A stretch of DNA of 41,766 nt from a virus. Its lineage: Duplodnaviria; Heunggongvirae; Uroviricota; Caudoviricetes. Positions within the stretch are counted from its first letter, which is position 1. Each line of letters starts with the position of its first letter. The position numbers and the translations under genes were made by a program. The DNA lies in the IMG/VR virus record IMGVR_UViG_2531839131_000018, one strand, 5' to 3'. The notes below the pieces were generated by a model that did no database searches, was not told the origin of the DNA, and worked only from the letters and a program-made list of their open reading frames with translations. Of this stretch, positions 4,510 through 13,110 are shown piece by piece.

Positions 4510-5091
4510 TATCGCGTCCTCAACAATGAATTTTGTGATGCGGTGCCTGGTGCCTCCAGGTGACGTTAACCAGTTAACAATTAACGCCGGATACAGAGAA
4601 CCCACCCATAAGAACCAATACGGAGGTCAACTAGCCTTTTTAACTGTTCCGCGTGCGCTTAGCCGCATTCACCGCATCACAAAATTCACTTTAAAAAGGG
4701 CGGCAGAGCAGTCACGGAGTAAAACTGATACCGCCAAACGTCACCAGAAAATTGATAACAGAGGGCGTTGCAGCGGAGTTGTCACTTAAGTGTATGGTCA
4801 ACCTGACAACCCGGTGCTTCATCGGGAAGACATGAACCCCCCGCCATACTTACCGCCGCGCCATTTCGCGGAGTGCCACAACCGGAAGCGCACGGTCGAC
4901 GAAAATTTAACGACAGGCTATCTATGAACCAGCTACCTCGCCGTGCGCTTTCGCGTTATGGTCTGACTTTTCAGGGAAATATCCTTTCAGTAAACTGTCA
5001 GTTCCGGATGCTCACCCGTGTCCGGCGCACGCACTCCACCTCACCCGTGGAGAACTCCTTAATTACCAACCTTAGCTTCGTTGGTTAGCTA

Positions 5092-6605: not shown

Positions 6606-7004
6606 TTATGCTCGACGTCCTTTTTGAGCGGCGAGCCATCTTGCAACGGTGCGATCCATTGATTCTTTTTTGTCTTTCATGTCCTTAAGCATTTGTTCTT
6701 GCTCTTCTTCTGGGAACGCCCCAAATGTTTGAAGTAAATCTCTTTGGCGCGGACCTATTTTCATTGAGTCAGGCACTACAACCTGTTCATCCTCGCTCGG
6801 AGGAAGCATGAACCAAAAAATAGGTCGTGCGGTTATTTGTGAAAGTCGATCTAAATTGTCAGGATTTGGACTAACCAAGCCCGCAGCCCATCGCTGCACT
6901 GTTTGTTGCGACACCCCAACTAATTTCCCAAGCTCCGCTTGACTCCAGCCTGTTTCAGACAAGAGTTTCTTTATTCTATATGCAGTGATCTCGAGTGTTT
7001 TCAT
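6606..7004 (-). CDS. HTH (XRE/Cro-CI family) repressor, RacR/PaaR2-like; likely prophage immunity repressor (132 aa)
   Basis: HTH motif SQAELGKLVGVSQQTVQRWAAG; divergent from a Cro-like gene; operator-like palindromes in the 7005-7110 intergenic region; co-oriented with the downstream toxin pair. Confidence 0.75.
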   Translation of the reverse strand: MKTLEITAYRIKKLLSETGWSQAELGKLVGVSQQTVQRWAAGLVSPNPDNLDRLSQITARPIFWFMLPPSEDEQVVVPDSMKIGPRQRDLLQTFGAFPEEEQEQMLKDMKDKKESMDRTVARWLAAQKGRRA

Positions 7005-11632: not shown

Positions 11633-11843
11633 AAACGGTTTGCAGTGAAAGGGGAGTTAAGTAGAATTGCTGCGGGTGCTTGAGGCTATCTGTCTCAGGC
11701 ATGAACACCAAAAGGCAGATAGAGAAAAGCCCCAGTTAACATTACGCGTCCTGCAAGACGCTTAACATTAATCTGAGGCCCAATCTATGTCTCACAAATG
11801 TAGGTTAGCCTCTTACGTGCCGAAAGGCAAGGAGAAGCAGGCT

Positions 11844-11999
11844 ATGAAGCAGCAAAAGGCGATGTTAATCGCCCTTATCGTCATCTGTTTAACCGTCATA
11901 GTGACGGCACTGGTAACGAGGAAAGACCTCTGCGAGGTACGAATCCGAACCGGCCAGACGGAGGTCGCTGTCTTCACAGCTTACGAACCTGAGGAGTAA
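11844..11999 (+). CDS. hok: Hok/Gef-family type I toxin (51 aa), closest to HokD/RelF from memory
   Basis: MKQQKAMLIALIVICLTVIVTALVTRKDLCEVRIRTGQTEVAVFTAYEPEE shows the Hok signature (transmembrane segment, conserved Cys, C-terminal EVAVF..YE); an in-frame upstream ATG at 11787 gives a mok-like extension. Confidence 0.85.
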   Translation: MKQQKAMLIALIVICLTVIVTALVTRKDLCEVRIRTGQTEVAVFTAYEPEE

Positions 12000-12142
12000 G
12001 AGACCAGGCGGGGGAGAAATCCCTCGCCACCTCTGATGTGCCAGGCATCCTCAACGCACCCGCACTTAACCCGCTTCGGCGTTTTTTCCGTTGATTAACT
12101 CTAGTTATTAGAGAACCGAACTTTTATTGATGGGGCAGGGAG

Positions 12143-12535
12143 ATGAAGAAACTTGTTTTAGTCGCAGGTGTAATGATTGCAACAGTAATGTTGGGGGGGT
12201 GTGCAGCAAAGGTCGATCCAGCGTTGAAAGCAGAAGCAATGAAGCCACTAATATGTAATGATGAAAAGCAATGTGACTTTTATTGGAAACGAGCGCAATT
12301 CTGGTTGGCTAATAATTCCTCATGGAAAATTCAAACGGCGACAGACACGCTAATTTCCACTTATAATCCCTCACCAAATAGTCCATTCCTCGCTTATCAA
12401 GTGAGTAAAATGCCAAATGAAGATGGATCCTCAAGAATTTTCATCAAGCCTTTTTGCGATAATATGTTTGGCTGTCAACCAAACCCCTATCAGGCAGTTG
12501 TTTCCTTTAAAAACTTCGTTAAAACAGGGCAGTAG
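12143..12535 (+). CDS. Lipoprotein (130 aa), candidate moron
   Basis: Signal peptide with lipobox VMLGGC (Cys20); Cys-rich mature domain; GGGAG Shine-Dalgarno upstream. Confidence 0.65.
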   Translation: MKKLVLVAGVMIATVMLGGCAAKVDPALKAEAMKPLICNDEKQCDFYWKRAQFWLANNSSWKIQTATDTLISTYNPSPNSPFLAYQVSKMPNEDGSSRIFIKPFCDNMFGCQPNPYQAVVSFKNFVKTGQ

Positions 12536-12734
12536 TGTATAGCTTGGACGATAAATTATTAGTGAAAACGCCGTAAACCCTCACCCAATGTGGACTAAGC
12601 CTATCAAACATGACTGTGATGATTAGTCCGTAGTTGTTGCCTATGAAATCTGGATTGAGTCAGGGTTTAATCCAATAATTATTCTATCGTTCCTTTACAA
12701 GTCCGGTATATTACTTTCAGTTTGTTTTAGCATA

Positions 12735-12759
12735 CCCGCTTCGGCGGGTTTTGTTTTTT
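12735..12759 (+). terminator. Rho-independent terminator
   Basis: CCCGC-TTCG-GCGGG hairpin followed by TTTTGTTTTTT. Confidence 0.6.
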
Positions 12760-12831
12760 CCTGGCATTCTGGTTTACAATTCGCACGCCAGCCTGAACAA
12801 CTGGCACCTGCTGCGCCAGCAGAGACAACCG

Positions 12832-13110
12832 ATGGCGCACGATACCAAATTACACAATTCTAATGATTCTGCCGCCTTTGCCAGCAGGCACGGGCGGCGT
12901 TCTCATGCATTCAAACCTGACTGGTTCCAGCATGCCCCCTGCACTGAAGAGCAGGCCGAGTGGCTGATTCAGAACTATCGCAGACGTGGGTATGAGTTTA
13001 GGAAAGCCCTCACCCTCGATTATCGTCACTGGATAATCTACGTCAGGCTCCCTTATTCCGAACGCCCACCACGCCCGTCCCGCACATTCCAGCAACGCAT
13101 CTGGAGGTAA
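12832..13110 (+). CDS. Hypothetical nin-region protein (92 aa)
   Basis: ORF MAHDTKLHNSNDSAAF... ending 2 nt before the DUF968 gene; basic, Trp/Tyr-rich; no family recognised. Confidence 0.45.
   Translation: MAHDTKLHNSNDSAAFASRHGRRSHAFKPDWFQHAPCTEEQAEWLIQNYRRRGYEFRKALTLDYRHWIIYVRLPYSERPPRPSRTFQQRIWR

Follow-up and report, generated by a model that had tools for sequence, protein, structure and literature searches.

Phage morons and envelope lipoproteins

The moron concept (Juhala et al. 2000; Cumby et al. 2012, as summarised in PMC3594210) applies to pieces of extra DNA that deviate in GC content and carry their own promoter and terminator (PMC3594210). The founding moron is gene 15 of phage HK97, located between the tail assembly chaperone and tape-measure genes, whose product gp15 is a superinfection-exclusion protein (PMC3594210). 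Small lipoproteins such as Llp and Rtp45 act alone: bound to an outer-membrane protein on its periplasmic side, they abolish the binding of phages (PMC12685063). Here, we describe a one-gene cassette in a lambdoid prophage, IMG/VR record IMGVR_UViG_2531839131_000018, the whole 41,766-nucleotide stretch of which is hereafter designated as the window. The cassette carries a gene for a 130-residue lipoprotein (positions 12143..12535), inserted behind the toxin gene hok. Its sequence is filed in databases as a hypothetical protein and under a PHROG of unknown function, and the kind of element, a moron with an envelope lipoprotein, is well known. In the literature searched, we found no description of the family, of its fold or of the way it moves between platforms, and a search for the accession WP_000737636 returned no papers.

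An inserted cassette behind hok

An earlier note, made from the sequence alone, had described this lipoprotein gene as standing alone. That it is an independently acquired accessory gene is strongly supported by the existence of an empty site, by a low GC content and by an intact terminator at the 3' end, and the cassette can be regarded as a moron. It comprises or adjoins the following features.

12082..12746, + strand: moron cassette of ca. 665 bp, recognised from the empty site, low GC and co-occurrence, its edges being ambiguous inside a repeated hairpin
12069..12089, + strand: truncated copy of the hok terminator, ACCCGCTTCGGCG/TTTTTTCC, at the left edge of the insertion and repeated directly at 12734-12746 and 12753-12761
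12132..12142, + strand: purine-rich ribosome-binding region GGGGCAGGGAG, read from the sequence and kept as GGGGATAGGGAT in relatives from other genera
12143..12535, + strand: lipoprotein coding sequence (CDS) of 130 amino acids, from the open reading frame (ORF) and its translation; annotated 'hypothetical protein' WP_000737636.1
12143..12199, + strand: lipoprotein signal peptide, residues 1-19, with a KK n-region, a hydrophobic core and an LGG/C lipobox
12536..12733, + strand: AT-rich 3' non-coding spacer, part of the cassette, co-occurring with the gene
12734..12761, + strand: intact intrinsic terminator, ACCCGCTTCGGCGGGT followed by TTTGTTTTTTCC, which matches the empty site's hok terminator exactly (terminator scan and folding)

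The empty site was sought by joining the two flanks in silico and searching 5426 complete Escherichia coli genomes with this junction. The best matches cover the query completely (100%) as a single uninterrupted piece, in which the hokD terminator leads directly to the small ORF that flanks the insertion on the right. At least 80% of the junction query is covered in 2671 genomes, roughly half of those searched, a count that includes filled sites, where the two pieces were joined. When one empty site (L019) is aligned with the window, the match runs base for base across the junction, and a single intact hok terminator stands against the truncated copy, the 665 bp and the intact copy found in the window. 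The lipoprotein gene itself occurs in 255 of the 5426 genomes, always on the chromosome and, in at least 250 cases, at this same insertion site. These carriers, about 5% of complete E. coli genomes, include enteroaggregative E. coli (EAEC) 042 as well as enterotoxigenic (ETEC) and avian pathogenic (APEC) strains. The cassette has a GC content of ca. 0.39-0.41, as against 0.52-0.58 in its flanks, and the AT-rich spacer (ca. 193 bp after the stop codon), in which no convincing ORF and no Rfam match were found, travels with the gene in 248 genomes. Three of the four properties by which morons are defined are thus present, namely extra DNA, deviating GC and an own terminator.

The hairpin CCCGCTTCGG(C/T)GGGTTTT also lies 5' of related cassettes elsewhere, in an Enterobacter tail operon (L088, ca. 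4880-4905) and in an IMG/VR viral contig (L020, ca. 6925-6950). Because the same hairpin precedes related cassettes in such unrelated contexts, the cassette most probably entered by recombination in terminator sequence, and the hok terminator hairpin may, judging from these repeats, be a common joint at which morons are exchanged by recombination.

The point just behind the hok terminator is a small variable insertion site with at least three different inserts. At the position equivalent to ca. 12082, E. coli FG92-1 (L098) carries an AT-rich non-coding insert of ca. 290 bp and E. coli SMS-3-5 (L099) an unrelated ORF of 87 residues (WP_000975567.1), the hok hairpin being intact in both. In a separate observation on the cassette-bearing prophage of E. 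coli 042 (L097, 6982-23984), two partial terminase large-subunit pseudogenes flank a stretch of ca. 15 kb. This stretch encodes an integrase and a DUF927 protein and, for a second time, a set of terminase, portal, protease and capsid genes; the arrangement looks like one mobile element inside another.

The lipoprotein and its family

The interval 12143..12535 is a real gene under purifying selection. Ratios of nonsynonymous to synonymous substitution rates (dN/dS) against relatives from other genera lie between 0.04 and 0.11 for the three gene pairs with an estimable dS, synonymous sites being saturated in the remaining pairs. An exhaustive profile search covering 1.84 billion cluster representatives identified 1139 relatives at E<=1e-3, 530 of them at E<=1e-10, which amounts to a family of at least 1139 clusters at 50% identity.

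The predicted precursor begins with MKKLVLVAGVMIATVMLGG/CAAKV, and its signal peptide follows the layout MKK-LVLVAGVMIATVM-LGG/C, with two lysines, a hydrophobic core of 15 residues and the lipobox L-G-G-C. All the elements by which bacterial lipoprotein signals are recognised (a positive n-region, a hydrophobic core and a lipobox of the form [LVI][ASTVIG][GAS]C) are present, and a lipobox occurs in nearly all of the 163 family sequences inspected. The lipobox cysteine, Cys20, is encoded at 12200-12202 and followed by alanine at position +2. Counted from Cys20, the mature protein has 111 residues, a mass of 12.6 kDa and an isoelectric point of 8.6. Four further cysteines form two pairs, C38-x5-C44 and C105-x5-C111, separated by about 60 residues, so that the lipobox and the cysteine-rich mature domain of a 130-residue lipoprotein described in the earlier note are both borne out. 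Across 85 diverse relatives, C20, C38, C44 and C105 never vary, C111 is kept in more than 90%, and the C-x5-C spacing of the two pairs is kept in 129 and 119 of 144 family sequences, respectively. Two disulfides probably staple the mature domain. Lipidation at Cys20 is predicted, as is, from the enterobacterial Lol +2 rule, an outer-membrane location; the inner leaflet of the outer membrane is the expected destination because the +2 residue is alanine, as in 115 of the 144 family sequences, and none of the 144 has aspartate at this position.

With an alignment of 12 sequences, AlphaFold2 modelled the protein at a predicted local distance difference test (pLDDT) score of 82.7, which rose to 93.6 with 85 sequences (predicted TM-score, pTM, 0.82; five models, 90.8-93.6). 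The model has a short helix (26-32), a long one (41-58) and a C-terminal one (115-128), together with a short strand (36-38) and then four strands (63-66, 70-73, 80-91 and 97-106). In this model the mature domain is a compact small alpha/beta sandwich, a common fold class that assigns no function.

The full length of the lipoprotein matches PHROG 16082 (E 7.7e-84, residues 1-130 aligned with all 130 profile positions) and, more weakly, PHROG 4186. All 85 diverse relatives match the former and 73 the latter. The lipoprotein is a member of these families, yet both are functionally unannotated and membership explains no mechanism. Pfam and NCBIfam scans gave no meaningful match, nor did a sequence-profile search of the PDB, whose top sequence matches span the signal-peptide region only. 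When the 85-sequence profile was used in another, word-indexed search of proteins, every name that came back read 'hypothetical protein', and a profile scan of genome contigs with the alignment of close relatives (A2) returned nothing. No functional annotation at all, and hence no housekeeping role of the kind that the earlier note had named as a refutation, was assigned by homology.

In fold searches, the viral collection BFVD yielded nothing at E<=1e-3, and neither Llp, Cor, Rtp45, Bor, RcsF nor any lysozyme inhibitor is represented among the 60 best fold matches. Among the candidates considered and set aside, matches to DUF6491, LPAM, Sbal_3080, Cor and QseG are marginal, and readings of the protein as a lysozyme inhibitor, a spanin, an RcsF-like or a Bor-like protein are without sequence or fold support.

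Where relatives live

Members of the family are found in prophages, on plasmids and in an integron. Some lie in repressor operons: P0017 (locus L005) is located 45 nucleotides (nt) downstream of a Peptidase_S24 repressor gene on the same strand, and P0018 (L006) shares a 4-bp overlap with an HTH_3 repressor gene, also on the same strand, in an element with an integrase and VapE. P0022 (L010) follows, on the same strand, a cI-like gene with HTH_3 and Peptidase_S24 domains and precedes a terminator; this cI-like gene faces a divergent YdaS/Cro-like gene. Genes so placed in a repressor operon, with lambda rexAB as an example, are active in the lysogen. In L005 (1456-1944), the family member is followed by an overlapping second, unrelated ORF with a lipoprotein signal (VSKTILAALALVLAG/CSS...) and without a PHROG match.

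Other relatives occupy tail operons. The Enterobacter homologue (81% identity) lies between the tape-measure gene and gpM, that of Pantoea (75%) between gpI and gpJ, and the Phytobacter copy adjoins a tail-gene remnant. A homologue with 31% identity is located between chaperone-like and tape-measure-like genes of a phiJL001/GTA-like (gene transfer agent-like) tail, while in another phiJL001/GTA-like tail cluster a relative lies on the opposite strand, beside an Mrr-like nuclease gene. Since an exported lipoprotein cannot be part of the virion, the copies in tail operons are morons as well.

Outside phage-like surroundings, WP_032201349.1 (42% identity) is the only obvious cargo of minimal, mobilisable ColE1-type plasmids of 2.5-4 kb in Salmonella and Citrobacter (L002 and L004, 4.0 and 2.5 kb). 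On the Shewanella decolorationis plasmid pNi1-3 (L029, 4950-5480), a relative with 43% identity forms the first cassette beside an integron integrase, bounded upstream by a GTTAGGC core and on its downstream side by an attC-like GCCTAAC...GTTAGGT. The family also reaches Shewanella, Mycetohabitans, Sphingomonas, Acinetobacter, Plesiomonas plasmids and metagenome contigs. Some members are fused to other domains, including a subfamily of ca. 230 residues with a C-terminal PDZ domain (P0034, P0101, P0103, P0111 and P0134; alignment A5) and a protein of Acinetobacter plasmids of ca. 110 kb (L028, 4776-5345) that is annotated as LysM domain-containing and whose C-terminal part matches the lipoprotein domain. 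P0118 appears to hold two tandem copies of the lipoprotein domain.

Isolated phages present a different picture, with family members in only 2 of 50,697 genome records. Both are E. coli phage records, one of which shares the hok-to-Q gene order of the prophage loci, and a tblastn search of the same records with divergent family members returned only these two. This near absence fits a function that benefits the lysogen.

Genomic surroundings in the window

The genes next to the cassette agree with the position, between hok and downstream phage genes, that the earlier note had assigned to the lipoprotein gene.

11674..11849, + strand: hok/sok regulatory region, upstream of the cassette and outside the insertion (Rfam RF01794 sok, 120.1 bits, E 2e-28)
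11844..11999, + strand: hokD toxin CDS, 51 residues, within a mok-like ORF at 11787..11999 (Pfam HOK_GEF, E 3e-23); identical loci are annotated hokD
12832..13110, + strand: small ORF of 92 residues, PHROG 1212 (unknown function), right flank of the insertion

Downstream of the cassette, the 92-residue ORF is followed by a DUF968 gene, rusA and Q. The lysis genes are not nearby, and J, the gene for the central tail fibre, lies ca. 24 kb from the lipoprotein gene. J is split into overlapping ORFs at 36305..38035 and 37947..39797 (region 36305-39797), which match positions 263-804 and 805-1307, respectively, of the PHROG 31 profile, the first ca. 260 positions being absent from the first ORF. 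Either a defective prophage or frameshift errors in the sequence may account for this. A lipobox scan of the window yielded one other ORF, at 19868-20023 (+ strand, 51 residues, MPRTAAKWVLVAILVPFLLVG/CVS...), downstream of the lysis genes. Read from an upstream ATG at 19841 it has 60 residues, it matches PHROG 7528 (unknown function) at E 2e-30, and it may be another lipoprotein moron.

Proposed function and alternative readings

Our favoured reading, which we hold tentatively, is that the cassette is a moron encoding a periplasmic lipoprotein anchored in the outer membrane, which acts alone and most likely excludes phages, possibly also colicins. A single-gene cassette of ca. 665 bp would have been acquired horizontally, entering the prophage by recombination at the terminator hairpin of hok. 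Its precursor would be exported by Sec, lipidated at Cys20 and freed of its signal peptide, and the Lol system would then sort the lipoprotein to the periplasmic face of the outer membrane. There, the protein, working alone and probably made in the lysogen or other carrier cell, would bind or modify an envelope component in such a way that incoming phages, and possibly colicins, are excluded. This would amount to superinfection exclusion or receptor masking by a family unrelated to Cor, Llp and Rtp45.

Several lines of reasoning point in this direction. Prophages (at several unrelated positions), minimal plasmids and an integron have repeatedly captured the gene on its own, and it must therefore be of benefit to the carrier cell by itself. 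A role in protecting the lysogen is favoured by the recurrent placement of relatives in immunity regions and tail operons and by their near absence from isolated phages, and we infer that the lipoprotein is expressed in lysogens. Exclusion or envelope masking ranks first because this lysogen-protective placement is combined with the mechanistic precedent of Llp and Rtp45; the exclusion function itself we infer. The idea of superinfection exclusion or envelope modification put forward in the earlier note is thus plausible from context, with relatives behind cI-like repressors and in tail operons.

A number of observations weigh against this reading, and some of them concern expression. The earlier note had placed the gene between two terminators, apparently as its own transcription unit, and had suggested a check for a sigma-70 promoter near 12100-12140. 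The downstream terminator (12734-12761) is real, with a folding energy of -13.1 kcal/mol (z -3.3), and related cassettes in other contexts each end with their own hairpin and T-run. The upstream one (12069-12089) proved to be a truncated hok copy which, without the GGTTTTG of the empty site, is left with a 3-bp stem and folds like shuffled sequence (-3.7 kcal/mol, z +0.22); this crippled hairpin is present in all 55 E. coli-type IMG/VR loci. A promoter scan of 12085-12142 called no sigma-70 promoter. With the upstream hairpin crippled and no such promoter called, the picture drawn in the earlier note is only half borne out in the window, and read-through from hok becomes possible. In relatives, an extended -10-like motif, TGnTAGGAT, occurs 31-33 nt 5' of the start codon (TGTTAGGAT in L020; TGATAGGAT in L023, L088 and L089), and a plasmid-borne relative has the extended -10-like motif TGTTAAAAT ca. 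38 nt 5' of its start codon. The window reads CTCTAGTTATTAGAG at the relatives' -10-like position, where TGnTAGGAT is not intact. A reasonable alternative is that transcripts started at the hok promoter, or at pR once the prophage is induced, read through into the gene.

The 5' leader contains a further element, found by comparison of upstream regions.

12099..12113, + strand: small palindrome CTCTA-GTTAT-TAGAG in the 5' leader, without a good -10 hexamer

The pairing of this palindrome is preserved across lineages (CTCTA/TAGAG in the window as against TAGGA/TCCTA in L020 and L088). A leader hairpin with apparent compensatory changes was considered and set aside; the RNA fold is not significant, and the element overlaps the relatives' candidate -10 motif.

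The remaining points against exclusion concern the protein and its partners. Neither sequence nor fold relates the lipoprotein to Cor, Llp, Rtp45 or Bor, the defence hidden Markov models of PADLOC-DB v2 gave no family at E<=0.1, and the sources searched hold no annotation or experiment that ties the family to phage resistance. An E. coli pangenome defence screen mentions 'a lipoprotein'; the window lipoprotein matches no PADLOC model. The fusions to PDZ and LysM domains hint at a general periplasmic binding role that is not specific to phages. The J proteins of the window, Enterobacter and Pantoea have unrelated C-termini though their lipoproteins are 75-81% identical, and the E. coli cassette is found in prophages with different late-gene modules. 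Masking of the carrier phage's own receptor, in the manner of Cor or Llp, was set aside as a candidate, the lipoprotein showing no co-variation with the J C-terminus or the tail type. If there is an excluded-phage target, it is probably not the carrier's own receptor.

A bolder form of the favoured reading, which we consider doubtful, is that the large family of proteobacterial lipoproteins which this one represents in E. coli prophages constitutes an unrecognised type of single-protein envelope defence, anchored in the outer membrane, stapled by disulfides and with a fold unlike that of Cor, Llp and Rtp45. Whatever receptor the carrier phage itself uses, such proteins would keep out phages or colicins, or both, and their genes would pass singly between prophage immunity regions, tail operons, ColE1 plasmids and integrons. 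If true, they would represent a structurally new class beside the few known outer-membrane exclusion lipoproteins. Should exclusion be confirmed, carriage by about one in twenty E. coli genomes could affect host range in phage therapy. No mechanistic surprise has emerged yet, and a one-gene family found on prophages, minimal plasmids and an integron is an unusually clean target for the discovery of function.

Alternative readings differ in how well they agree with these data. The protein could be an immunity or inhibitor protein directed against an enzyme that acts in the periplasm, such as a lysozyme, a tail peptidoglycan hydrolase, an amidase of the type VI secretion system or a bacteriocin, rather than a receptor block. 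A small, disulfide-rich, periplasmic product as the single-gene cargo of tiny ColE1 plasmids and an integron is what is often seen with orphan immunity genes. LysM and PDZ, the domains to which relatives are fused, bind peptidoglycan and peptides, respectively, and several relatives adjoin tape-measure or NlpC/P60 tail genes. However, the fold lends this reading no support, and we regard it as unlikely.

We give no greater weight to a host-fitness or virulence conversion factor unrelated to phages, which might confer Bor/Iss-like serum resistance or modulate envelope stress or outer-membrane biogenesis. The lipoprotein has no similarity to Bor/Iss, the spread of the family over Shewanella, Mycetohabitans, Sphingomonas, Acinetobacter, Plesiomonas and metagenomes is a misfit with a role specific to host animals, and the repeated siting in phage immunity and tail regions speaks for phage-related selection.

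Less probable still is an accessory of the lytic cycle, made by N- or Q-antiterminated read-through after induction, which would for example shield progeny from debris or aid the disruption of the envelope. The lack of a detected promoter in the window would agree with such a role, as would the location of the gene in the early-right region transcribed from pR, and close relatives on the same strand in late tail operons are likewise open to antiterminated read-through; Llp of T5 plays a lytic-cycle role (PMC12685063). However, only two isolated phage records hold a family member, plasmid and integron copies have no lytic cycle to serve, and other relatives lie in repressor operons. In addition, the lipoprotein and the receptor-binding end of J show no co-variation, and no lysis gene is near it in the window.

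Finally, a chance ORF or a decaying, functionless remnant, as might be suspected from the bare annotation 'hypothetical protein' and a possibly defective prophage with a split J, is effectively refuted by conservation, given the low dN/dS, the near-invariant cysteines and lipobox of 85 sequences, the 1139 cluster representatives and the confident AlphaFold models.

Comparison with known systems

Like the lipoprotein described here, lambda Bor/Iss are stand-alone lipoprotein morons encoded by prophages. They differ in genome location, and neither the window protein nor its 85 relatives match them in Pfam or NCBIfam sequence searches.

The predicted fold, which resembles helix-grip, KA1 and Flpp3 domains, brings other proteins into view. 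Flpp3/DUF3568 of Francisella and the N-terminal domain of BamC are fold matches, yet with only 12-13% identity, and the Pfam DUF3568 model does not match the lipoprotein. As KA1 domains, which belong to eukaryotic kinases, reach similar scores, this likeness is best taken as a common fold class and not as a shared function.

Cor (phi80, N15 and HK022), Llp (T5) and Rtp45 (Rtp) are closer in biology. They too are phage-borne lipoproteins of the Sec/Lgt/Lsp type, placed on the periplasmic side of the outer membrane and encoded by stand-alone genes. In contrast to the ca. 12.6-kDa mature product of the window, Rtp45 has ca. 6 kDa, Llp is small (PMC12685063) and the PHROG profile of Cor has 78 positions. 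Their genes lie beside the receptor-binding gene and are common in virulent phages, whereas the window lipoprotein is not linked to the receptor-binding end of J and its family is nearly absent from isolated phage genomes; the fold predicted here also differs from theirs. Sequence similarity does not extend beyond the signal peptide: the match to the Cor profile PHROG 1119 (E 0.0075) is confined to residues 1-44, essentially the signal peptide, and the Cor model NF047972 of NCBIfam does not match the window protein and reaches 1 of 85 relatives at E 0.079.

The genetic likeness to the founding moron is of another kind. HK97 gp15 is a small YebO-like protein of the inner membrane, whereas the 12.6-kDa lipoprotein is predicted for the outer membrane. 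As with HK97 gene 15, the cassette is extra DNA among otherwise collinear prophages, with an odd GC content, a single gene with a terminator and an envelope product, and relatives of the lipoprotein occupy the same kind of slot, between tail chaperone and tape-measure genes.

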